Shown: positions 1 through 35,278 of the stretch, piece after piece
How positions within the stretch are numbered: position 1 is the stretch's first letter
How the letters are laid out: every line of letters begins with the position of its first letter
From: a virus
Taxonomy: Duplodnaviria; Heunggongvirae; Uroviricota; Caudoviricetes
Length of the DNA: 36,388 nt
Direction: 5' to 3' (one strand)
IMG/VR virus record: IMGVR_UViG_2671180892_000013
The notes under the pieces: generated by a model
Told to the model about the DNA's origin: nothing
Database searches by the model: none
The model's input: only the letters and a program-made list of their open reading frames with translations
Position numbers and translations under genes: made by a program

Positions 1-258
1 ATGCAAACCGTTATTTTTGGTCGTTCGGGTTGCCCTTACTGTGTGCGTGCAAAAGATCTGGCTGAGAAATTGAGCAATGAACGCGATGATTTTCAGTATC
101 AGTATGTAGATATTCGTGCGGAAGGGATCACTAAAGAAGATCTACAACAAAAGGCAGGTAAACCCGTAGAAACCGTGCCGCAGATTTTTGTCGATCAGCA
201 ACATATCGGCGGCTATACCGATTTTGCTGCATGGGTGAAAGAAAATCTGGACGCCTGA
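1..258 (+). CDS. grxA: glutaredoxin 1
   Basis: 85-aa ORF with CPYC redox motif (GCPYCVRAKDLAEKL); full length starting at window position 1; matches my recollection of E. coli GrxA. Confidence 0.93.
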   Translation: MQTVIFGRSGCPYCVRAKDLAEKLSNERDDFQYQYVDIRAEGITKEDLQQKAGKPVETVPQIFVDQQHIGGYTDFAAWVKENLDA

Positions 259-267
259 TCGTCTGAC

Positions 268-300
268 AAGCCCTCGCGTTGAGGGCTTTACTGATTTTTT
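268..300 (+). terminator. stem-loop plus T-run between convergent grxA and ybjM
   Basis: Inverted repeat aagccctc/gagggctt followed by ctgatttttt directly after the grxA stop. Confidence 0.5.
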
Positions 301-665
301 CTGTGCTGTGGTTTAAACAAACTACTGATAAATAAGAAACACAGTGCCCCCAGCGCACACCAGAACACCGCGCTTAGTAACCATGCCAGCTCTTGCCAGA
401 ATGAGCGCGTCGGTGAAAAAAACAGCCGCATAATGAGCATCGAACAGGGTGCCGCCAGCATTGCGCCAAACAGAGGTTTCAGGACTTCTCTACGCTGTGA
501 AAAGAAGCTGGCGACTGCTCCAGGAAGAATGAAAAATAGCAAGCCGATTTCAGGATGCCCGGCAGCCCGAAAAGCGCCTTTCATGTGCGTCGCCAGAAAA
601 AGGCACACCACAATGAAGAGGACAAAACAGCAGATTGCCCCCGCCCAACGTTGTTTATGTTTCAC
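288..665 (-). CDS. ybjM: inner membrane protein YbjM
   Basis: 125-aa hydrophobic ORF lying between grxA and ybjL as in E. coli gene order. Confidence 0.85.
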   Translation of the reverse strand: MKHKQRWAGAICCFVLFIVVCLFLATHMKGAFRAAGHPEIGLLFFILPGAVASFFSQRREVLKPLFGAMLAAPCSMLIMRLFFSPTRSFWQELAWLLSAVFWCALGALCFLFISSLFKPQHRKNQ

Positions 666-934
666 TCGTTCCTCCTGACACTGCGTCTATCGAACACATT
701 TTTCGCCAGTGTGGCGTTCAGTAAGATAAAGCCGCTTCGCATTCCATGCTAATATAGGCCAACGCAATTCATATAGCCGTTGATACCTAATGTGATTACA
801 CTAGTAAAATATATTGTTACTTTACTATCGTTTAGGTGCGCTGAATGAATCTGCGCCCTGAATTCTGGTAAAAAACATTATCGTAAATTACCATTTCTTT
901 CAACAGCTTACTAGTAAACAAGAAGTTAGCCTCC

Positions 935-2620
935 GTGAATATAAACGTCGCCGAATTGTTAAATGGGAATTACATTCTGTTATTATTTGTGGTCCTCGCG
1001 CTTGGGCTATGTCTCGGAAAGTTACGACTTGGTTCGATCCAACTGGGTAATTCCATTGGCGTTTTAGTCGTATCGCTGTTATTAGGCCAACAACATTTCA
1101 GCATTAACACCGATGCGCTTAATCTTGGCTTTATGCTGTTTATTTTCTGCGTCGGGGTCGAAGCCGGACCGAACTTTTTTTCCATTTTTTTTCGCGATGG
1201 GAAAAATTACCTAATGTTAGCACTGGTGATGGTTGGCAGTGCGCTGGTGATCGCCTTAGGGTTAGGTAAGCTGTTTGGCTGGGATATTGGCCTGACGGCC
1301 GGTATGTTAGCAGGCTCTATGACGTCGACACCGGTTCTGGTCGGTGCTGGCGATACACTGCGTCATTCCGGCATGGAAAGCAGGCAGCTCTCACTGGCAC
1401 TGGATAATCTGAGCCTCGGGTATGCCTTAACCTATTTAATCGGTCTGGTGAGTTTGATTGTTGGTGCGCGTTACTTGCCGAAATTGCAGCATCAGGACTT
1501 ACAGACCAGCGCCCAGCAAATCGCCCGCGAACGTGGCCTGGACACTGATGCCAACCGTAAGGTTTATTTACCGGTGATCCGCGCCTATCGCGTCGGCCCG
1601 GAACTGGTGGCCTGGACCGACGGCAAAAATCTGCGTGAACTGGGTATTTATCGACAAACCGGCTGCTACATTGAACGTATTCGACGTAACGGGATTCTGG
1701 CAAATCCAGACGGTGATGCCGTGCTACAAATGGGCGATGAAATAGCGTTGGTAGGCTATCCCGACGCCCATGCCCGACTCGATCCCAGCTTCCGTAACGG
1801 TAAAGAAGTTTTCGATCGTGACCTTCTCGACATGCGTATCGTCACTGAAGAAGTGGTCGTTAAAAACCATAACGCTGTAGGTAAACGTCTCGCACAACTG
1901 AAGTTGACCGATCACGGTTGCTTCCTTAACCGCGTCATTCGTAGCCAGATTGAGATGCCGATAGATGACAACGTCGTGCTTAACAAAGGTGACGTTTTAC
2001 AAGTCAGCGGCGATGCCCGCCGCGTAAAAACCATCGCCGATCGCATCGGCTTTATCTCGATTCACAGCCAGGTCACTGACCTGCTGGCATTCTGCGCCTT
2101 CTTTGTTATTGGGCTGATGATCGGGATGATCACCTTCCAGTTCAGCACATTCAGTTTCGGCATGGGGAACGCTGCCGGGTTGTTATTCGCCGGAATTATG
2201 CTGGGCTTTATGCGTGCTAACCACCCGACCTTCGGTTACATTCCGCAGGGTGCATTAAGCATGGTGAAAGAGTTCGGCTTGATGGTGTTTATGGCAGGCG
2301 TTGGTCTGAGCGCCGGTAGCGGTATTAATAACGGCCTGGGCGCGATTGGCGGTCAGATGTTGATTGCCGGATTGATTGTCAGTCTGGTGCCCGTGGTTAT
2401 CTGTTTCTTGTTCGGTGCTTATGTATTGCGAATGAACCGCGCGCTGTTGTTCGGCGCAATGATGGGCGCACGTACCTGCGCGCCGGCAATGGAGATCATC
2501 AGTGATACAGCTCGCAGTAACATCCCGGCGCTGGGCTATGCGGGCACCTATGCAATCGCCAACGTCCTGCTGACGCTGGCAGGGACAATCATCGTCATGG
2601 TATGGCCAGGATTAGGATAA
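935..2620 (+). CDS. ybjL: putative transport protein YbjL (AAE-family transporter with central TrkA-C-like domains)
   Basis: 561-aa ORF with membrane N- and C-terminal halves and a soluble middle; GTG start at 935; synteny with grxA and ybjM. Confidence 0.9.
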
Positions 2621-2732
2621 AACTGAAGTTGCCCTGAAAATGAAATTTTTTTGCACAACCGCAGAACTTTTCCGCAGGGCATCAGTCTTAATTAGTGCCA
2701 CTGCTTTTCTTTGATGTCCCCATTTTGTGGAG

Positions 2733-2776
2733 CCCATCAACCCCGCCATTTCGGTTCAAGGTTGATGGGTTTTTTG
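2733..2776 (+). terminator. rho-independent terminator-like hairpin downstream of ybjL
   Basis: cccatcaacc ... ggttgatggg 10-bp stem followed by ttttttg. Confidence 0.5.
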
Positions 2777-3046
2777 TTGCCTGAAATTCAATGCCTTTCA
2801 TATCATTAACTTAACTCATCCCATCTTAGCCATTGGCGACAAAATGGCGGCAGCGCATTTGAAGCCACATTGTTACCTTCAAAGCCCAAACAATTATTGC
2901 ATATCAGTCATACATATCTCATTTACAAAAACCTCCGAGATTTCAGTGCGTAACCTAAATTTCTTGGATGTACTAGCTTAAAAATGTTATTGATCTTAGT
3001 TGAGGTAAGAGATTGTTTTCATATGTTTTTAAACTAGGACGGCGCT

Positions 3047-3409
3047 ATGTGCATTTATGATTTTGTAGCTAACGATGGAAATACGTATCAGATTGATCTT
3101 GATGACGAGTACATTGAGGTTCGGCTAAGCGGTGAAAAAGTGGGTAGTATTAGTCTGAATTTGATTCAAAATGATGATTATTCACCCGATTATTATTACA
3201 TCACAGACCTTAGCCTCGAAAAGTGCAAAAGATTGGGTATAGGAAGAGAATGCTTACGGTTACATCAAAAAGAAATAAAGAGCCCAATCTGTGCTGCGGA
3301 AGAAAACTCGGTGAAAATGTCTGATGGAAGCCATCTTATTGGAGATGGAGTTCCTTTTATCGCTAAAATGCGTGATGAGGGAATCGTTGTCCCAAGTACA
3401 TATCATTAA
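3047..3409 (+). CDS. small GNAT-like (acetyltransferase-fold) hypothetical protein; cargo gene at prophage left end
   Basis: 120-aa ORF in AT-rich DNA with an R-L-G-I-G-R segment resembling GNAT motif A; agga 8 nt upstream of the ATG. Confidence 0.35.
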   Translation: MCIYDFVANDGNTYQIDLDDEYIEVRLSGEKVGSISLNLIQNDDYSPDYYYITDLSLEKCKRLGIGRECLRLHQKEIKSPICAAEENSVKMSDGSHLIGDGVPFIAKMRDEGIVVPSTYH

Positions 3410-3424
3410 TTTATCCCCTACTTT

Positions 3425-3446
3425 TAGCCCAGGGTGAACTGGGCTA
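3425..3446. terminator. hairpin between convergent GNAT-like gene and ogr
   Basis: tagcccag ggtgaa ctgggcta perfect 8-bp stem; no strong T-run. Confidence 0.35.
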
Positions 3447-3469
3447 GTTACCCACAAATTTTAAGCACT

Positions 3470-3685
3470 TCAGTAAACTAATTGTTCCTGCATACCTTTT
3501 GGATGAGGCGGCGCTGCGCTGATTTTTTGAGGACGGCATACTGAGCGCACAAAAGTCTCATGTGTCACGAACGTATGCCCGCACTCGATGTTAGTGCACT
3601 GGTTGTAGCGTTCTTTGGTTTCATTGGAAACCTGAAAGCTACTACGTGTATGCGCGGCCTGCCCGCACATTGGACAATTCATCAT
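3470..3685 (-). CDS. ogr: Ogr/B-family zinc-finger late-gene transcriptional activator
   Basis: 71 aa with CPMC ... C-x5-C cysteine pairs; sits next to gene D as in P2 and 186. Confidence 0.85.
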   Translation of the reverse strand: MMNCPMCGQAAHTRSSFQVSNETKERYNQCTNIECGHTFVTHETFVRSVCRPQKISAAPPHPKGMQEQLVY

Positions 3686-3752
3686 TTCGTTCAGCCCTCA
3701 CTCATAACCAGTTCGCAATAATGATACATTATTGTTCTCAATTTGGAACTAA

Positions 3753-4853
3753 TCATTCAATTTCGAACTCATCTATTTTCACTTCAAGCTCCATGCTGGT
3801 CGTAAATCCATTATCCGGGCTGACAGAATGCGTCAGGGTGGTAATGGTCCATTCTGCATCATCGATCGGCTGCTTAAACCCCGTCACCTTCACCGGCATT
3901 TCCGTATAGAGATCAGCCCGCCCCTCAGCGAGCTGCAGGGAAAATGAAGCGACCCCACGCTGCAGACGTTCCCATTGCATTTTTGCTGCGCGCTCTGCAT
4001 TGCTCCGGTTGGCATAAGTGCGATTAAGTACCAGCACGTTTTCATCCGTACCCACCAGGTAATCGCCCTGCTTCGCTTCCTGCTCTTTCTTCTGCTTCTT
4101 AGTTCTGCGCGTCCGCTTCACCGTGGTGCTTTCTTTCTTCGCGGGTTCGCGGGTATGCAACCAGCTGGCAATTACGCCCGTGTAGGCTCCGCGATCTGCC
4201 AGGGTAAAGCGGTGACTGTCGCCGTCCTTACGTGTGATAGTGATAACCGGTAGTGGTTTACCGCTGGCGCTTTTGCCCTGTCCCTGCCGGATGAATAACA
4301 GATTGCCATTTTTCACCGACGCAATAGCACCGTACTGGCGCGCCAGCCGCATCAGAAAACTGCCGTCACTCTCATTGGTCTGGTCTATATGTTCCACGGG
4401 TTTATCTGACAGGTCTTTACCCAGTGCCATCTTCAGTTTGTGCCGCACAGCTATTTCCTTCACCACTTCCCCGACGGTGGTCTTGTGCCACGACTTTTCA
4501 CGGCGGGTATTCAGCGTTTCACGAAAATCAGCACTTCGCGCCCGGATAGTCAGGCGGTCCGGTGCGCCAGTGTGTTCAATCTCGTCCACCGTGAATGCCC
4601 CTTTCGGGAAAAGCGGCTGCCCCTTCCAGCCCAGCGCCAGCGTAATGACCGCACCACGGCGCGGCAGCACGATTTTTCCATCGGCGTCGTCCAGCTCCAG
4701 ATCAAGCTGGTCCGCTTCAAATCCCCGATTGTCCGTCAGCGTCAGACTCATCAGGCGGTTATCCAGCACAGTGGTGATATCCCTGCCCTCAATACTGATG
4801 CTGAATGCGGGAGTTTTGTTGCCTTTGTTAAGCAGTTCAGAGCTGAAATTCAC
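3753..4853 (-). CDS. D: tail protein D (late control gene D family)
   Basis: 366 aa; positioned between U and ogr; recognisable P2 gpD-like sequence. Confidence 0.85.
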   Translation of the reverse strand: MNFSSELLNKGNKTPAFSISIEGRDITTVLDNRLMSLTLTDNRGFEADQLDLELDDADGKIVLPRRGAVITLALGWKGQPLFPKGAFTVDEIEHTGAPDRLTIRARSADFRETLNTRREKSWHKTTVGEVVKEIAVRHKLKMALGKDLSDKPVEHIDQTNESDGSFLMRLARQYGAIASVKNGNLLFIRQGQGKSASGKPLPVITITRKDGDSHRFTLADRGAYTGVIASWLHTREPAKKESTTVKRTRRTKKQKKEQEAKQGDYLVGTDENVLVLNRTYANRSNAERAAKMQWERLQRGVASFSLQLAEGRADLYTEMPVKVTGFKQPIDDAEWTITTLTHSVSPDNGFTTSMELEVKIDEFEIE

Positions 4854-5335: not shown

Positions 5336-8300
5336 GCGTCGTATCCCCCCTGATCGCTGTAGTTACTCCTGGCTTTTGCCTTCAGCCTGCGTTCACGCTC
5401 ATCAAGCTGGCGGGCCACCTCCCGCGCAATATCCTGCGCACTTTGTCCTGGCTGCGTCTGGATGATGATCTGCGTCGGTGCCTCAATCCGGTATACGGGC
5501 TGCACAGCAGTTGCGCGACTCACCATTGCTTCACTGCCTTTCGCGGGAAGCGCCAAAGGATGCAACGGTGGAAGCTCTGCTGGCGCGGCAGCAACGCCCA
5601 TCATTCCGGCGACAACCGCAGCCAGTGCAGCGGTATTTCTCCGGCTGGTCACGTTTGCCGGGCCGTTGACAATTTCAGGCCCATTTTCACCGACAATGCC
5701 GAACTGCCCGCGCGGGATATACCCACCGCTGTCATACATCCCCACAAAGCCATATCCCCATGACGGAAAACCACCCGATGGCATCATCACTTTACCGTCT
5801 GCATTCACCGTCGCAGGTTGCTGGTGCGTCACGCTTTCCGGTAGTTTTGCTTTTACGGCCTCTTTACTGACAATGCCGAGTTTTTCCAGCAGCCAGGAAA
5901 CGCCGGATTTCAGGGAGTCCAGCGGATGCATGACCATATTCAGCCCTTCCGCCAGTGCCTCCCCGAATCGTCGCCCCATTGCCGCTGCGCTCTGCAGTTC
6001 GGCAGAGGTCGACTTAACGGGCGTCAGCAGATCAGTAAACCAGCCCCACAGAGCCTGCACTTTGTCACCAATCCACTGAAACACGGGCTTAAGTGGTTCG
6101 AACGCTGCACTGACGGGACCTGCCGCCGCTTTGAATCCTTCCACCACGCCACCAAGAAATGCGGTGATGGGTTGCCAGTATTTCCAGACAACCAGCGCCA
6201 CGCCCGCCAGTGCAGTAACCACAAGACCTATCGGACTGAGCAGAGCGCCTAACAGTCCAGATATGGCATACAGGGCAACGCGCAGCATCGCCAGCGGACC
6301 AGATGCCAGTACTCGCAGCACCGCGCCTGCGGCGGTCAGTCCACCGCGCAGTACCGCCAGAGGATTCATAAACATCACAGCAACAGCACGTAAACCGGAT
6401 AATCCAGACCGCAATAGTGCAATCGGCGCACCTGCTACAGTTTTCAGGACATTTCCCGTCAGTGATGCCGTACGGCGCAAAGACGACAACGGCGCAGTAA
6501 GTAAACCCGCTGCATTACCCGATGAAGCAAGCCCGCGTCGCAGCAGTGCCAGTGGTGCGCCAGCCAGCCAGGACAACGCGTTGCTGGTTCGGGTTACTGC
6601 TGCCGTAACGGAAGGTAACGTTTTGATACCCAGCACAGAGAATCCCAGACGGATGACTGCCAGCGGCCCCAGCACTGCAGCCAGCGCCACCGCTAAGGTG
6701 CCGAGGCCCACGGTAACGGCAGCCACCACAGCGGCCACTTTCATCAGAGTGCCCGTCAGTTCCGGGTTAGCTTCCACCCAACGACGCGACGCTCCCGTGA
6801 CGCTTTTCACCATGTACAGAATATCCATCAGCGGCTGGCGCAGCGTTTCGCCCAGGCTGCTGAAGGTGTTCTGCACTCCGGTTTTGACCAGCAACCACTG
6901 CGCAGAAAGTGAGTCCTTGTTAATGTCGGATTCTTTCTGCATGGAGCCGAGCGCATCATTGCCCGCTGTCAGTTTTAGCTGGCGCTGCAGTTCCGGCAGG
7001 TTGTTTGCCAGTTTCGCCGCGTCATCGCCAAACTCTTTACCAAACAACATGGTCATGGCAGACAGACGTTTATCCTGCGGCAGTGCGTTCACCTTCTCCA
7101 GTACGCGCTGGATAGTTCCCATCGCATCCTTCGTCATCTGCTTTTCAATCACTTCAGGATTGAGTTTCAGCAGATTCATTCCTTCAAAGAAACTCTTGCT
7201 TTGCATGGTGGCAATGGACAATTCACGCACCATCGCGTTTGCTGCACTGGCTGCAACCTCTGGCGCAGCGCCCAGTGTCAGAAAGGTGGAACCCAGCGCC
7301 GCCGCTTTACGATAATCCAGACGATCAGCCACACCACCCAGGCGTTGCATGACATCAATGATATCTGCCCCTTTCGACATGGCGTTATCATCCAGATAGT
7401 TCAGCGCATCACCGAGCTGTTCAATATTGCGGGTAGGGATTTTGTAGAGCTGGGCGATTTTCCCCAGACTTTCTGACAGTTCATCCGCTGGCAGCTCAAA
7501 GGCTGTTGCCGCCTTTGCTGCCGTACTGGCGAAGGCCAGCAGATCACGTTTCTGGTCTTCCCAGCTGTCGTCAGGGTTTGCGACGTTCATGCGCGCACCA
7601 CCTTCAACCAGTGCAGCGAAGTCCACAGCACCGTTTTCCATCGGCAACTGTTCGCTGGCAGCCTTGATGGCATCCTGCATTTCATAAAAACGTGCAGTGC
7701 GGTTGCCATTATCGTCACGCAGACCATTGACCTGCTTTGCCACACCTTTCATGGCATCTTCTATGCTGGTATAGCTTTTTACTGCCGCCATCACTGGCGT
7801 CCCCATTGCCAGCCCTGCAGCCGTGGTAGTGGCTCCGGCTCCTGCAATACGATCGCGCACCTCCAGCGAACGGGCATAACTGGCACGCGCCGCATTCATC
7901 CTGCGCTGAGCTTCCCCCAGTCGCTTCAGCCGCGCCTCCTGTTTCGACAGTTCCTGGTTATAACGTGATGTTTCACGGGCTAAACGGGCAGTTGCTCCCG
8001 CATCATCTTTCGCAGAAATTCCCGCCCGGTACAGTTCTGCACGCACAAGCGCCGTTTGCTTCTGCAAATATTTTTGTTGTTCTTCCAGGCGTTGGACTGC
8101 CAGCGTTTGCCGACCTAAAGCCACAAGGTGCCGTTGTGATGGTTGTTCCATCGCCTCCAGCTCAGAGCTAAGCAAATTAGCCTTCTGTCTGGCATAGTTC
8201 AGCTTGTCGCCTAACTTCTTGTTATCGGCCTGCAGCTTGCGAAATTTTTCCAGGCTGTTACCCGCCTGATTGAGTTTCTTTAATGCGTCACGGGAGTTTC

Positions 8301-9417: not shown

Positions 9418-10590
9418 TTACGCGCTGACCTGGCTGGCGAAATTCACCAGGTACTGATCGGTGATACGCTGGCGCAGCATCAGATTTTCAAGTGGCGGCA
9501 CTGGCGTGTAGTCATAGTCGATGGTGAGTTTTCCGGCTTTCAGCGTGTCTTTGTCGTTCACCGACTCATCCAGCCAGCAATCACCACCAATGAGATAGCC
9601 CTGACTGACCAGGCTGCGCATTTTGGCGCGGATACCTTCGATAATGTCGCGGGCCAACGACGGGTTCAGCGGTTTGTCCACCGCCCACATATGCGCTTCT
9701 GCCATTGTGTCCATAAGTACCTGCGCCGTGCGGGTGTAGTTTTCGAAGGCAAAGAGCGGATCATCGCTCAGACAGCGGGACCCCCAGAAGCGAAAACCAT
9801 CCTTGCGCACAAGCGTGGTGACGTCGTTCTGGTTCAGCAGACCTGCATCGGTTGCCGGGTCCTGCAGATCCCAGAACACATCAGCAGAAATTCCGGTGAC
9901 ACCGTTCACGCCCACGTTGGACAGGCTTTTGTGCCATCCAGTCTGCTCATCAATTTTGGCGCGCAGACCGAGCGCACGGGCGGTGGCATATGCCGTTGCT
10001 TCGGCATTCAGCACCGTGTCCCAGCCAGTAAAGTCAGGCCAGATCAGCATCCCTTCGCGCTGGCTGAAGTTTTCGCGGTAAGTGATCGCCTCCTGCACTG
10101 TCTTGCAGCCATACGCTGACAGGTAAGCAAACCCACGCAGGCTTTGCGCCACGCTCAGCAACTCAGTCGCAACGGCTTTGTTATCGTGACCTGGCACGCC
10201 GAGAATGCGCGGTTTAACGCCGAGCTGTGACTGGGCAGATAGCAGGGCTTTCATGCCTGTTTTTTTACCTTCAGCAGTCACAGCGCCGATGATATTGGTC
10301 GTGGTTTCGTCTTCCGTTTCACCCTGCGGCACACGCACAACAACGGTCACGGGTTTTGCCTGGTCAGCGATGGCATCCAGCGAACGGGCCAGAGTACCGG
10401 ACTCACCCGCTTTACCGCTGGCAGTCAGCACATCAGTGATCAGCACGGGTTTATTAAGAGGAAACATTTTTGCATCGGCATCATCGCCCGTGCAGACCAT
10501 ACCCACGATGGCGGTGCTCACCGTGGTAATGGATCGGGTGCCTTCGTTGACTTCAACAACGCGCACCCCGTGGTGGTAATCCTGAGCCAT
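9418..10590 (-). CDS. FI: contractile tail sheath protein FI
   Basis: 390 aa; first gene of the FI-FII-E-T-U-D block. Confidence 0.9.
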
Positions 10591-24576: not shown

Positions 24577-25449
24577 CTACCAATTCATGCTTTCTTTTAA
24601 TTCAGTTCGCGCATTTTCAACAAGTTGTACCAACTCTTTAAGACTATCAGTTAACACTTGATGACTACCTTTATTTGTTCTATATGTTAACATATTTACA
24701 TTTAATGTTTTTTCAATAACAGGAACCATATCTCTATGAATACTTTTATCAGCCATAACCATATAATGTGGTTTAACAGCATTGTGCTTGAAAAAAGCAT
24801 CTTCCAGAAGAAGCCTTATATCGGGGTCATTAGCCCCACAACCTATAAATAGAAATGTATGCGTTAAACCCAAGGCATTAAGAATCTCGTAAAAATCTCT
24901 GTACTGTGATCTTGCCTTTGCATAATCACTTCTTGAAAAAATCAAGTTTGACGTATTATCAATTGTGCCGTGAATTTTCAGAATAACACGACCACTATCC
25001 TTTATTGCACTTGCAATATCACTATCAAAATAATTTTTGACACTTACCGTGCCTTCTGTTTCTTTACTAACATATGTTTCATATATTTTATCAAAATTAG
25101 GCGTTACAACAATCCTGCAATCTAATTTAAAAAGAAACTCATGTATATCTGCTTTAGCATAATGTGGATTCAAGAATGCATTTTTTGCAATTTCATCGAA
25201 CCTCCCTTTAGGAAGCTTTGCCTTAATTAATTCACAAGCAGTCAAATAATCTTCGTTTTTAATCAATCGTTTAATTTGTAGCGATGACCCAGAACTGAGT
25301 TCTGGTAAACATCCTTCAAGAAATTGTTTCCAACTTGGAGGCCGTGAATTACCTTTACCAACACTGTTCATTGAGACGCCTGCCCCCAGAAATAAAATAC
25401 ATTTCCGTCTCGCTAAATCGGAGACTAAGCTTTTATCCCAATTAATCAT
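24577..25449 (-). CDS. SIR2-like domain protein (predicted NAD-dependent effector), second gene of a two-gene cargo operon
   Basis: 290 aa; CILFLGAGVS glycine-rich motif near the N-terminus, TPNFD, IHGTID (HG), FLFIGCGANDPD; AT-rich; ATG overlaps the upstream ATPase stop (ATGA). Confidence 0.7.
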   Translation of the reverse strand: MINWDKSLVSDLARRKCILFLGAGVSMNSVGKGNSRPPSWKQFLEGCLPELSSGSSLQIKRLIKNEDYLTACELIKAKLPKGRFDEIAKNAFLNPHYAKADIHEFLFKLDCRIVVTPNFDKIYETYVSKETEGTVSVKNYFDSDIASAIKDSGRVILKIHGTIDNTSNLIFSRSDYAKARSQYRDFYEILNALGLTHTFLFIGCGANDPDIRLLLEDAFFKHNAVKPHYMVMADKSIHRDMVPVIEKTLNVNMLTYRTNKGSHQVLTDSLKELVQLVENARTELKESMNW

Positions 25450-26453
25450 GACTCACTCGCAGCAACATTATCAAGGATACGGGAACAAATACTTTCAAAA
25501 AGCTTCTTAGCATCGTTTACTTTTGAAAAGTGCGATCCTACTACCCCATCTTTATTTTTAAGATTAAAAATTGGAGCATTTGCTAATTGAGACAATGGAA
25601 TTAAGCTATTCATATTCTCAATTTGCCCTAAATCAAAATTCATATCTTGTTTTTTTGCGTAATTATTGATTATTTCTGCTTTCATTGCCTTAGGAATTTT
25701 AAGTGCAATTTTTTCATACGCATTAACTTTTACTTTCTCTCCCCTTACTGTTTTCCCTTTATATTGTTGCATCGCATACCCAAGAAACTTCAGTCTGCAC
25801 TGTAAAGATGAGCCATCGATGATAAAATCTTCACCTTCATTTTTAGTATAGTTTTTCAGGCCATCAGATACACCTTCCATCCAGGCCTTTAGCGAAAGGT
25901 TAATATTATTAAGAGCTAAAAGACTAAACATATCAACAGACATTGGAATAATGAAATAGTCACATGATATTATTATTGCTCTATTCAATGCACCTAATGA
26001 AGGGCCTACATCATATAAAATAAAATCATAGTCTTTATACATGGAGGACAGATGTGAAAAAACAAATGTTGTTTGTATACCTCGAGGTTTCCCTGCCACA
26101 GCGGGGTCCCAATCAGATGCTAAAAAATCCTCACTCAACGCTAACTTGGGATCCCCAGGAATCAAGTCAAAACCAAACCTATCAGTTTTTATTGGAACTA
26201 CACGAGTAGTTGCATATCCTTTTGCCCTCCGAACTGGGGTTAAGAAATTTTCAATTGTATTTCTCTTATCAGAACCATAAAGTTCATCAAGTTTTTTCTC
26301 TCCCAAACAATAAGATGTTGTGTTGCACTGAGGATCGGCGTCAATAACCAACACTTTTTTGTGCATCTCAAGACTAAGATAAGCACCAACATTACACAAC
26401 AATGTAGTTTTGCCAACGCCACCTTTATTATTGAAAAAAACTATACTGTTCAT
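25446..26453 (-). CDS. ParA/MinD-superfamily deviant Walker-A ATPase, first gene of the cargo operon
   Basis: 335 aa; NNKGGVGKTT at residues 8-17, VIDADPQ, ILYDVGPS; no ParB-like gene follows. Confidence 0.75.
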   Translation of the reverse strand: MNSIVFFNNKGGVGKTTLLCNVGAYLSLEMHKKVLVIDADPQCNTTSYCLGEKKLDELYGSDKRNTIENFLTPVRRAKGYATTRVVPIKTDRFGFDLIPGDPKLALSEDFLASDWDPAVAGKPRGIQTTFVFSHLSSMYKDYDFILYDVGPSLGALNRAIIISCDYFIIPMSVDMFSLLALNNINLSLKAWMEGVSDGLKNYTKNEGEDFIIDGSSLQCRLKFLGYAMQQYKGKTVRGEKVKVNAYEKIALKIPKAMKAEIINNYAKKQDMNFDLGQIENMNSLIPLSQLANAPIFNLKNKDGVVGSHFSKVNDAKKLFESICSRILDNVAASES

Positions 26454-33194: not shown

Positions 33195-33339
33195 AAGGCA
33201 ACATTCCTTATAGATATGGCTTGTGGCGAGCCGTAGTTTGTCGTGATTAGTAGTGAAGGCTCCAAAAGAACACTTCTGGTTCAACTTTAAGATCGCTTTT
33301 GGAATCTGTCAACGAATTTTGGATTTCCTTGGAGGACTC

Positions 33340-33915
33340 ATGGATTTCAGCAGCGGTGGTAAGAAAGTCATTGAACGTCTAGTTGAGGCGTACGGGTTCT
33401 CTACGAGACAAGCTCTTTGCGATCATTTGGGAGTATCCAAGAGCACCATGGCTACACGTTACATGCGAGACATCTTCCCTGCAGATTGGGTTTTGCAATG
33501 TGCTATTGAAACTGGTTATCCACTAGAATGGCTGGCATTCGGTATAGGGGACAAAAAACCCTCAAATATAAATGCACAAATTTTGGTACCAAAGAAAAAA
33601 TTAATTTCAGGAACGTTAATTGAAGATGGAGCATATATTTTTGATAAAACATTCTTACCTGAAAAAATATGTAATCCGTTCATCATTCAAGATCTGGATA
33701 ACGAATACATATGTAGCTCTGAATATAATGACATAAGCGATGGATTGTGGCTAATAGGCATAGACGAAAAAATTTCGGTCCGAACCCTGACCCGCTTACC
33801 TAATAACAGGTTATATGTTGAAGGAGGAAATCGTGGCTTTGAGTGTTCCAGAGATGAAATACAGGTTATTGGAATTGTGTGGTGCTGCATACTAAGAAGA
33901 GCAGAAAAATTTTAG
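33340..33915 (+). CDS. cI: CI-like immunity repressor
   Basis: ATG at 33340 preceded by ggagga; 191 aa, N-terminal HTH-like region (ERLVEAYGFSTRQALCDHLGVSKSTMATRY); 186 CI is about the same length. Confidence 0.7.
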   Translation: MDFSSGGKKVIERLVEAYGFSTRQALCDHLGVSKSTMATRYMRDIFPADWVLQCAIETGYPLEWLAFGIGDKKPSNINAQILVPKKKLISGTLIEDGAYIFDKTFLPEKICNPFIIQDLDNEYICSSEYNDISDGLWLIGIDEKISVRTLTRLPNNRLYVEGGNRGFECSRDEIQVIGIVWCCILRRAEKF

Positions 33916-33946: not shown

Positions 33947-35278
33947 ATGCCTATTGAATATACGTTTGATTATCGTGATGAGTTCCTTCGTAAGCCTATT
34001 GCTGAAAAATTAATAGCTCTACTGAACTCTGATATTAACTTATCTCCGCTGGTTATAGATGGCGGATGGGGCACGGGAAAAACAGAGTTTTGCAAAAAAG
34101 TTGCAAATCTAATTGAAAACAATAATCAAAAACATAAAGTAGTTTACATTGATGCTTTCGCTGAAGATCATAATGATGCCCCCATTTTGACGTTAATGGC
34201 AGGTGTTGCTGCACTTTTGCCCGAAGACAAACGAAAAGAGTTGATAAGCAAAACACTACCAGCAATACGTTTTGGTTTGAAAACCATTTTCAAAGCTGGC
34301 ACTGGATGGGTGTTAAAACAAAATGCAGATGACATTGTTGATGGCTTCGAAGATGCTATCAAAGAAGCCACTTCGAGTGCAATCGACAGTACAATTGAAA
34401 CATTATTAGACGATCATATAGAAGCACAGAAAAACATCGAGACATTGAGAAATACAATTTCGCAACTTACAGAGAAATTTAAAATAACGATTATTATAGA
34501 CGAACTGGACAGATGTAAACCTACATTCGCTCTTTCAATCATAGAAAATATTAAACACATTTTTGAAATAAAAAACTTGAATTTTGTTTTGGTTGCAAAG
34601 ACTCAACAACTCAAAGCATCAATAAGCCATCTGTATGGTTTATCCATAAATGCAGAACAGTATTTAGACAAATTCATAAAATTTACATTTGTATTGCCCG
34701 ATACATTTAAACCAGACAACTATACACCTGCATACGCATCTGTCGCTTTATGGGAAATATTAAAAAATGATTCTCAAAGACTGCAAGAAGTAAACGAAGA
34801 ATGCGGGCATATTATAAAAACGATAATACAAAGAGCTAAGTTGTCTTTACGTGAAGTAGAAACATTATCGCGCCATTTTGAAATATATCAGGTGCTATCT
34901 CAATCTGGAATTGGTCCAGAAAAAATATTTGGTTATTCATTATACCGAACGTTAGGAGTGATGCTATATTCTCTAAATCGCCCTTTGGCATTAAGCTATC
35001 TAGATAATTCTGTGGATGCAGAAAGTACTATCAAAACATTAGGCTTTGAATATTTAAGTTATGATGAGGATATTTATAGTGTAGATAATACTGAATATGC
35101 TATTTATGGGATCGTACTAGACTATATTGATGCAACATCTCCATTCTTTATAAAGGATGATGAAACCAGAAAAAAATGGACTGAACATGCTACCTATAGT
35201 TTCTTTCAAAAGGGCTTAAATACTGTTCCTCCCCGAAAACTTGTTTCGTCCGCCATTGAAGTTTTAATGCTCAACTAA
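33947..35278 (+). CDS. KAP-family P-loop NTPase; cargo gene between cI and int
   Basis: 443 aa; Walker A GGWGTGKT, Walker B IIIDELDRC; strongly AT-rich codon usage. Confidence 0.7.
   Translation: MPIEYTFDYRDEFLRKPIAEKLIALLNSDINLSPLVIDGGWGTGKTEFCKKVANLIENNNQKHKVVYIDAFAEDHNDAPILTLMAGVAALLPEDKRKELISKTLPAIRFGLKTIFKAGTGWVLKQNADDIVDGFEDAIKEATSSAIDSTIETLLDDHIEAQKNIETLRNTISQLTEKFKITIIIDELDRCKPTFALSIIENIKHIFEIKNLNFVLVAKTQQLKASISHLYGLSINAEQYLDKFIKFTFVLPDTFKPDNYTPAYASVALWEILKNDSQRLQEVNEECGHIIKTIIQRAKLSLREVETLSRHFEIYQVLSQSGIGPEKIFGYSLYRTLGVMLYSLNRPLALSYLDNSVDAESTIKTLGFEYLSYDEDIYSVDNTEYAIYGIVLDYIDATSPFFIKDDETRKKWTEHATYSFFQKGLNTVPPRKLVSSAIEVLMLN

Follow-up and report, generated by a model that had tools for sequence, protein, structure and literature searches.

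The stretch of DNA analysed here, referred to as the window, comprises 36,388 nucleotides (IMG/VR record IMGVR_UViG_2671180892_000013) and carries a P2-like prophage together with the host sequence that flanks one of its ends. At this end, an open reading frame (ORF) of 120 codons (3047–3409, plus strand) starts with ATG and translates into exactly the 120-residue protein quoted in an earlier note on this DNA, which had described it as a small GNAT-like protein and hinted at a tRNA-acetylating toxin. We refer to it as the mini-GNAT gene. The gene is located between ybjL (935–2620) and ogr (3470–3685, minus strand), the gene for the late-gene activator, an ogr/Delta-like zinc finger that matches PF04606 in the orthologous loci. 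Beyond the ORF lie the late genes of the P2-like prophage, with ogr followed by gpD (3753–4853), gpU and the tape-measure gene. The host/prophage junction is formed by an att core at about 2828–2855, downstream of the ybjL terminator. This core contains the block ATGGCGACAAAATGGCGGC, which is unchanged in all five orthologous junctions, and in an Enterobacter locus (L003) it occurs twice (5782–5799 and 9809–9837), at both ends of a prophage remnant. Furthermore, among the genomes listed, the alignment of E. coli genomes without an ogr-side match stops at about window position 2855. The G+C content around the ORF is 0.36–0.39, compared with at least 0.50 in ybjL and 50–60% in the phage late genes. 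The placement of a 120-residue ORF in AT-rich DNA between the host junction and ogr, as given in the earlier note, was thus confirmed.

The mini-GNAT gene is carried on a discrete cassette. At this site, a P2-like sister prophage (CP135595) aligns to window positions 2500–2861 and 3470–3800, but has only 47 bp where the window has the 608 bp from 2862 to 3469, and the mini-GNAT cassette is absent from it. We therefore regard this AT-rich segment (plus strand), which extends from the att core to the stop codon of the phage core gene ogr, as a presence/absence element on the ogr side of the att junction, just within the prophage. The identical protein was found in 319 index blocks of public assemblies, and the gene order ybjL, mini-GNAT gene, ogr, D, U, T was retained in all 24 contigs examined (eight places when collapsed). 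Enterobacter and Citrobacter carry orthologs with 64–85% identity in the same slot. Between five enterobacterial orthologs, the pairwise ratio of non-synonymous to synonymous substitution rates (dN/dS) was 0.09–0.21, with a dS of 0.7–2.0. The ORF at 3047–3409 is a real gene under selection. In Enterobacter sp. Cy-643 (L003 and L016) and Citrobacter portucalensis (L024), only a few kb of degraded prophage are left at the ybjL site, with ogr, a Phage_tail_S fragment and genes for DUF4917 or DUF6216. These remnants still contain an intact mini-GNAT gene, with a dN/dS of 0.13–0.19 against other orthologs, which would fit selection for the benefit of the host rather than that of the phage.

The cassette also has putative expression signals of its own. 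A Shine-Dalgarno sequence, AGGA (3036–3039, plus strand), is located 7 nucleotides before the ATG, and its position is kept as AGG or AAGG in the orthologs. Further upstream on the same strand, a putative sigma-70 promoter (2964–2993) consists of the −35 element TTGGAT (2964–2969), an 18-nucleotide spacer and the extended −10 element TGtTATTGA (2985–2993). A strict consensus promoter scan did not call this promoter. The blocks TTGGATG and TGATATTGATC are, however, kept upstream of five orthologs, in regions with an identity of only ∼74% elsewhere, and the TTGGATG and TG-n-TATTGA blocks within the 185-bp leader could well represent a promoter with an extended −10. Downstream, a 22-nucleotide inverted repeat, TAGCCCAG-ggtgaa-CTGGGCTA (3425–3446), is positioned between the convergent stop codons of the mini-GNAT gene and ogr, with a calculated RNA fold energy of −15.4 kcal/mol on the plus strand and −15.8 kcal/mol on the minus strand. 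It has no clear T-run and was not called by a terminator scan, but it is likely to be a terminator hairpin shared by both genes. The mini-GNAT gene thus combines presence/absence polymorphism, deviant composition and expression signals of its own, as expected of a moron or hotspot cargo gene. Like the morons of P2-like phages, its cassette is AT-rich, polymorphic and inserted between core genes, and to judge from the putative signals it is transcribed independently. Hotspots in P2 have been described between gpA and the portal gene, within the tail genes, between the integrase gene and att, and between a tail protein gene and CI (PMC13586616; bioRxiv 10.1101/2024.10.15.618418). The ogr–att side is not given as a defence hotspot in either of these two studies.

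Two further E. coli IMG/VR contigs (L107 and L108) are 98.7% identical to window positions 1–2783 and then diverge, as another element follows directly after the ybjL terminator. This element carries an ORF of 132 codons (L107, 2912–3310), followed by one for a 120-residue protein (L107, 3339–3701) that belongs to the same family as the window protein and shares 45% identity with it. The same chromosomal junction therefore harbours two different elements with a family member at the edge of each.

The mini-GNAT protein itself is acidic (isoelectric point 4.63) and matched nothing in Pfam, PHROGs, NCBIfam or PADLOC-DB v2, even at E ≤ 10. In addition, a literature search with accession WP_059340324 found nothing. 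An indexed search returned 14 relatives, and an exhaustive profile search returned 278 representatives at 50% identity; with a 149-sequence profile, the indexed search extended the family to at least 555 clusters at 90% identity. Nearly all relatives have 115–150 residues and are labelled 'hypothetical', and a single one was labelled 'GNAT superfamily' by the Joint Genome Institute. The family as a whole is acidic, with a median isoelectric point of 4.73 in the 149-member alignment. In 73 of these 149 members, a C-terminal tail of 10–15 residues with a net charge of −3 or below extends beyond the position of window residue 114, often with Asp, Glu or Tyr as its last residue (...DEDY, ...IDDY, ...DDD). 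The E. coli and enterobacterial subgroup, including the window protein, has no such tail. The idea that the tail mimics the C-terminus of SSB was rejected, since the window protein is tailless and tails showed no link with SSB partners.

Structure prediction and profile comparison both assigned the protein to the GNAT fold. AlphaFold2 models built from 14 and 149 sequences had a mean predicted local distance difference test score (pLDDT) of 85.1 and 88.6, respectively, and a predicted template-modelling score of 0.81 in both cases. The modelled chain starts with beta-strands at residues 2–7, 13–18, 22–27, 30–40 and 49–56, and continues with a helix (65–77), a short strand (81–82), a loop modelled with lower confidence (84–100), a second helix (101–110) and a last short strand (114–115). 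Structural neighbours of the model were almost exclusively GNATs, with agreement between Foldseek searches against PDB and against BFVD. The 149-sequence profile matched GNAT chains in PDB with E-values of 0.005–0.02, and among the 149 relatives weak matches were found to PF00583 (37 members, best E-value 7.8e-5), PF13508 (33) and PF13673 (9). The earlier note had singled out the segment YYYITDLSLEKCKRLGIGRECLRL, residues 49–72 of the protein, as the acetyl-CoA-binding motif A of GNATs. Indeed, the family profile places these residues on motif A (WQRQGIGKK) of the aminoglycoside acetyltransferase chain 5f46. Since structure prediction, Foldseek and the family profile all point to a GNAT fold, and neither the model nor the profile search came out without one, the GNAT reading stands.

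According to the model, the protein has a minimal GNAT fold, consisting of beta4, a K/R-x-x-G-x-G loop, alpha3, beta5 and alpha4 with F-x-x-x-M-R-x-x-G. Motif A (beta4 and alpha3, residues 49–72) is encoded at 3191–3262 on the plus strand and aligns, in the profile, with motif A of chain 5f46 and of AcrVA5. It includes the predicted acetyl-CoA pyrophosphate loop K61-R-L-G64-I-G66 (3227–3244, plus strand). The motif B helix alpha4 (residues 101–113; 3347–3385, plus strand) contains F104, M108, R109 and G112. Residues 1–27 were modelled as three beta-strands without a helix, at a pLDDT of 94–97, where beta1-alpha1-alpha2 would be expected. The GNAT domain therefore appears to be truncated or remodelled, and in the model the substrate-side helices alpha1 and alpha2 are replaced by a beta-hairpin. 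In this core, conservation among the 149 members centres on F104 (100%), G33 (99%), G64 and G66 (98% each) and M108 (91%), and A83 and G112 are also conserved.

A second conserved element is specific to the family. Between beta5 and alpha4, the loop D93-G94-S95-H96-L97 (3323–3337, plus strand) is nearly invariant among the 149 members (D 92%, G 96%, S 94%, H 92% and L 99%). This DGSHL loop is embedded in a 17-residue insert and has no counterpart in the canonical GNAT motifs. Judging from the position of the beta5–alpha4 junction in known GNATs, the loop should line the thioester or acceptor side, and we propose it as a possible acceptor or catalytic site. Compared with the GNAT superfamily (CL0257; PF00583, PF13508, PF13673), the window protein shares the beta4-alpha3-beta5-alpha4 core, the Q/R-x-x-G-x-G loop (K61-x-x-G64-x-G66 in this protein) and the motif B helix F..MR..G. 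It differs from the superfamily in that it matches no GNAT hidden Markov model at E ≤ 10, and in having the beta-hairpin in place of alpha1-alpha2, Ile or Val in place of the motif B Tyr, and the DGSHL insert. With respect to the minimal GNATs YjdJ (PDB 5i0c), At1g77540 (1xmt) and PF14542 (Acetyltransf_CG), the mini-GNAT family is set apart by its N-terminal beta-hairpin and its DGSHL loop, and PF14542 touches only 3 of the 149 members at E ≥ 0.14. By sequence comparison, the window protein appears to fall outside every curated GNAT family, including the minimal PF14542.

The altered active-site region raises the question of whether the protein is an enzyme. A non-catalytic sensor of acetyl-CoA or CoA, regulating a partner by binding as PanZ does with PanD, or as the ICL2 C-terminal domain does, would couple the metabolic state to a phage or host process. 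Such a role would be in line with the replacement of the motif B Tyr by Ile or Val at position 105 and with the absence from the model of alpha1-alpha2, which usually shape the acceptor site. However, the near-invariant Asp-Gly-Ser-His-Leu loop beside the cofactor site resembles an acceptor or catalytic site, catalytic activity is known for further minimal GNATs, AcrVA5 among them, and the 48 gene contexts described below revealed no conserved partner gene. We therefore consider a sensor improbable.

The profile matches bear on a further possibility, namely that the protein is an acetyltransferase for small molecules and travels as ordinary accessory cargo with no direct role in conflicts with phages. 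It could then detoxify, for example, an aminoglycoside-like antibiotic, a peptide-nucleotide or another amine toxin. The top PDB profile matches were indeed the aminoglycoside acetyltransferases meta-AAC0020 (E-value 0.005) and AAC(2') (0.01), the acidic surface would suit cationic substrates, and GNAT resistance genes are common cargo of mobile elements. Yet these E-values are marginal and the matches cover only the shared cofactor core. The protein has no match in NCBIfam, the models of which are used by NCBI for naming bacterial proteins. Moreover, no resistance genes or integrons were present at any locus examined, where defence genes were found as neighbours instead. We give this explanation a slim chance.

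We searched for partner genes across the family by crude gene calling at 66 loci, taking four genes on each side and clustering all neighbours against each other. By identity of the GNAT-like protein, the 66 loci collapse to 48 non-redundant groups. No neighbour family occurred in more than three of these 48 contexts, and no DUF1778 or ribbon-helix-helix (RHH) gene was present among the Pfam-annotated neighbours. The search thus gave no conserved partner and no antitoxin. This bears directly on the hint that the protein might be the toxin of a toxin-antitoxin module, acetylating aminoacyl-tRNA as TacT, AtaT and ItaT do, either as an orphan or with an unrecognised antitoxin. The toxins TacT, AtaT, KacT and ItaT indeed share with the mini-GNAT the GNAT fold and residence on mobile elements, the latter protein being itself a small GNAT on a mobile element. 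Furthermore, an XRE-type helix-turn-helix (HTH) gene is located 18 nucleotides upstream of the Lysobacter homolog, capH-capP precede the homologs in Burkholderiales, and HipBA or HigBA modules are present near some loci. The best match of the Lysobacter HTH protein was, however, a restriction-modification 'control protein'. GNAT toxins have about 160–175 residues. Unlike these toxins, the mini-GNAT is about 50 residues shorter, at 120 residues, lacks alpha1-alpha2 and has no adjacent antitoxin, and there was no TacT/AtaT-type chain among the fold or profile matches.

The sequence upstream of the mini-GNAT gene gave the same picture. No upstream gene accompanies the hundreds of copies in E. coli, Enterobacter and Citrobacter, and the 185-bp leader contains only one non-conserved ORF (2844–2981). 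This ORF encodes 45 residues, and not 47 as previously counted. Its start codon lies within the att core, and in the orthologous loci it is interrupted by indels with lengths that are not multiples of three, which is why we regard it neither as a gene nor as an antitoxin. In agreement with the remark in the earlier note that no partner antitoxin ORF is evident, the upstream search in orthologous loci found no antitoxin-like ORF. The suggestion of a tRNA-acetylating toxin received no support. The mini-GNAT is probably not a toxin of a toxin-antitoxin system: with no antitoxin, too short a domain and no similarity to a toxin clade found, this is the weakest of the readings considered, and we regard it as very unlikely.

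While no single partner is conserved, the neighbourhoods share a theme. Known defence genes recurrently adjoin family members in unrelated genomes, and this association with defence islands, which is absent from the earlier note, is the strongest contextual signal. PADLOC output in alignment mode reports families, not loci, and gives no exact fraction of loci with a defence neighbour. In two metagenomic loci (L006 and L007; L006, 488–3530), genes for DUF6471, PD-Lambda-5_A (2e-141) and PD-Lambda-5_B (1e-118) are followed by the mini-GNAT homolog after a gap of 3 nucleotides, and this spacing suggests co-transcription with a complete PD-Lambda-5 system. The methyltransferase in these loci was also considered as an orphan anti-restriction Dam, which was rejected because PADLOC identified it as PD-Lambda-5_B, following PD-Lambda-5_A in a complete defence system. 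On a Pseudomonas aeruginosa plasmid, a gene for the methyl-directed restriction enzyme mREase_II (3e-45) is located directly upstream of the homolog, and in Acidovorax HEC-07 is found directly downstream. The Marinobacter homolog has genes for a type I HsdR, a YgjP-like peptidase and DarG (2e-128) nearby. In Lysobacter, besides the HTH 'control protein', the neighbourhood includes Vsr, Eco29kI, a C5-methyltransferase, FRG, GmrSD_N and an OLD-like ATPase, and in Desulfonatronum it includes a HigBA-like pair, a CBASS CD-NTase with Cap15, PDC-M28C and a NERD helicase. In 37 further metagenomic or viral contexts, genes for SspD, SspE, LmuB, KwaA, KwaB, bSEFIR and PDC-M65B, for type I restriction-modification (R, M and S) and type IIG restriction-modification, and for HEPN, GmrSD and DndB domains were found at most two genes away.

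Other members are placed on the backbones of mobile elements. At a prophage end in Burkholderiales (L020–L023), capH (1.5e-24) and capP (2.5e-49), which encode regulators that respond to DNA damage, are followed by the homolog, which overlaps by 4 nucleotides on the same strand, and then by genes for DUF2924 and a serine recombinase. On Xanthomonas MOBH plasmids (L011 and L012), the order is ssb, small ORFs, the homolog, a helicase gene, a gene for a TPR protein and mobH, and on a Pseudomonas integrative conjugative element the neighbours are SSB, TopoIII, Abi_C and an SNF2 helicase. In the Burkholderiales loci (L020–L023, 3344–7387), capH-capP also face a divergent operon of two genes, and the encoded proteins of 414 and 312 residues match neither Pfam nor PADLOC. 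A canonical capH-capP pair is oriented divergently to the operon under its control (bioRxiv 10.1101/2022.04.27.489752), and by this rule the 414/312-residue pair could be an uncharacterised defence system.

Taken as a whole, we favour the reading that the mini-GNAT is a stand-alone, acetyl-CoA-dependent acetyltransferase that takes part in the conflict between phages or mobile elements and their hosts, most likely as a prophage-encoded defence factor. We put the probability of this reading at about one half. Prophage defence or superinfection exclusion is ranked first because family members reside in chromosomal defence islands, because they are absent from the isolated phage genomes searched (50,697 genomes, three family members as tblastn queries, no match), and because the prophage-borne members are close to att or to the repressor gene and have their own signals, which is the usual place of genes expressed in a lysogen. 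Mechanistically, the mini-GNAT would bind acetyl-CoA and use it to acetylate an amino group. The DGSHL loop would serve as the acceptor or catalytic site, with His96 or Ser95 taking the place of the missing motif B tyrosine, and the protein would act without a partner, probably dimerising to complete its truncated fold. The lysogen would most likely express it as a single-gene defence or superinfection-exclusion factor, and acetylation of a protein of the incoming phage, or of a host factor or aminoacyl-tRNA needed by the phage, would then block the infection. We infer both the substrate and the direction of action, that is, defence as opposed to counter-defence. A more specific proposal is that the mini-GNAT is the founding member of a new family of single-gene anti-phage defence systems, acetylating one phage or host target; we advance it tentatively and consider the odds to be somewhat against it.

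Several observations weigh against the favoured interpretation. The assignment to defence is by guilt by association, which is qualitative and was counted without a formal background control, and on mobile elements, anti-defence genes too are found clustered with defence genes. Some members, on the MOBH plasmids and the integrative conjugative element, are near ssb and a relaxase gene, a typical anti-defence setting. In the Burkholderiales lineage, the mini-GNAT gene is co-directional with capH-capP, unlike the canonical divergent arrangement, and it may be a simple passenger there. As for the protein, no PADLOC defence model matched it, even at the permissive threshold mentioned above, the position of the usual motif B catalytic Tyr is occupied by Ile or Val, and the DGSHL loop is the least confident part of both AlphaFold2 models (pLDDT 59–74). 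Lastly, Brc113, the functional precedent, is a canonical GNAT unrelated to the mini-GNAT family.

Brc113 (gcu113) is a single-gene GNAT integron cassette for which phage resistance was observed experimentally (bioRxiv 10.1101/2024.07.02.601719). It resembles the mini-GNAT in being a stand-alone GNAT gene carried as mobile cargo, and provides a precedent for the proposed function. Its sequence, taken from the supplement of that paper, contains a canonical RGKGYA motif A and an AHRLYLSKGFE motif B. Membership of Brc113 in the mini-GNAT family was rejected, as the two proteins share no significant similarity.

The plasmid and conjugative-element settings also bring up the opposite direction of action. 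A small acetyltransferase of a mobile element could inactivate an immune protein of the host, as AcrVA5 does with Cas12a, and would thereby shield the element, be it a prophage, a plasmid or an integrative conjugative element, while it enters the cell or resides there. Small anti-CRISPR proteins with a GNAT fold are known, namely AcrVA5 (PDB 6iuf) and AcrVA5Bsp (PMC10799925). In line with such a counter-defence enzyme, family members are located between ssb and the MobH relaxase gene on 19 Xanthomonas plasmids, and one is located beside SSB, TopoIII and the SNF2 helicase on the Pseudomonas element. SSB-rich leading regions are hotspots of anti-defence genes (PMC11541004), and a putative placement of this kind is suggested for the Xanthomonas and Pseudomonas members. 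The strongly acidic character of the family, with acidic C-terminal tails in about half of its members, would fit as well. It is these locations on plasmids and conjugative elements, close to ssb and a relaxase gene, that keep counter-defence in serious contention. Against it, the three queries found no member among the isolated phage genomes, BFVD yielded only generic GNATs with template-modelling scores of at most 0.52, and many members reside in chromosomal defence islands without an evident mobile-element backbone. On balance, we consider counter-defence unlikely, though a good deal less so than the other alternatives.

A direct comparison with AcrVA5, based on a sequence checked against PDB 6iuf, did not reveal closer kinship. 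AcrVA5 and AcrVA5Bsp are likewise tiny, acidic, stand-alone GNAT-fold proteins borne by mobile elements without a partner gene, and motif A of AcrVA5, KRQGIG (aligned as KRQGIGSQ), is close to the family consensus. However, hhalign covered only the 24 motif A columns, with a probability of 14.5% for alignment A1 and 74.7% for A2, the 149-member family alignment, and AcrVA5 was absent from the top structural matches of the mini-GNAT model. Kinship was rejected, since the profile comparison aligns motif A only. Unlike AcrVA5, the mini-GNAT family resides for the most part in defence islands, and no member was found in the phage genome collections that were searched. To our knowledge, E. coli has no Cas12a. 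In its mode of action, the mini-GNAT would be closest to the small modifying enzymes that act alone in conflict systems, and it is outside the AcrVA5, TacT and Brc113 lineages.

The window prophage carries further cargo. At the portal/gpA hotspot (24577–26453, minus strand), two overlapping genes encode products of 290 and 335 residues. The former is SIR2-like, with PADLOC matches to ThsA (1e-21), LmuA (3e-20) and Dsr1 (1e-8), while the latter gave no solid match; from these matches, the pair looks like a two-gene SIR2-based defence module. Between the gene for a CI-like repressor (33253–33915) and the integrase gene (35306 to the end of the window), a gene at 33947–35278 (plus strand) encodes a 443-residue product that matches the phage-defence candidate PDC-S20 over its full length (5e-174), with weaker similarity to PifA/QatA-like ATPases. 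With the SIR2-like pair, the PDC-S20 gene and the mini-GNAT cassette, the prophage thus has cargo in at least three slots, and the SIR2-like and PDC-S20 genes in the other slots add to the case for a defence role of the mini-GNAT. Strain 2c3 (NZ_CM176618.1) is the only complete E. coli genome with an identical ogr-end cassette, and its other cargo differs: a SIR2 gene with a gene for an ATP-binding protein, HipA-domain and HIRAN genes, and a DUF2971 gene between the integrase gene and att. Coordinates of the window and strain 2c3 correspond only near the ogr end, and the ORF layout differs from about 21 kb onward. Between these two prophages, the hotspots are shuffled on a conserved backbone.

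What emerges is an unnamed mini-GNAT family, belonging to the GNATs at the level of the fold, with a signature loop and a defence-island lifestyle. Uncharacterised families are numerous in defence islands. With at least 555 clusters, in defence islands from E. coli to Desulfonatronum, this family is invisible to Pfam, NCBIfam, PHROGs and PADLOC, and this affects the annotation of cargo in prophages and islands. The junction between ogr and att in P2-like prophages represents a cargo slot that has been little emphasised by hotspot surveys. At 120 residues, the mini-GNAT is also a compact test case, in which the cofactor loop is clear and a single invariant loop is the candidate active site. As AcrVA5 demonstrates, an immune effector can be inactivated by acetylation, and Brc113 suggests that defence can be achieved by a single GNAT. 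If the mini-GNAT has a role in defence, it would represent a new mode, as enzymatic immunity by acetylation has barely been explored. A new defence family of this kind would use a DGSHL acceptor loop where GNATs usually have their substrate arm, would have been spread across Proteobacteria by prophages, integrative conjugative elements and plasmids, and would rank with the smallest known enzymatic defence systems. The mini-GNAT is therefore a candidate for a new single-gene player in the conflict between phages and bacteria.

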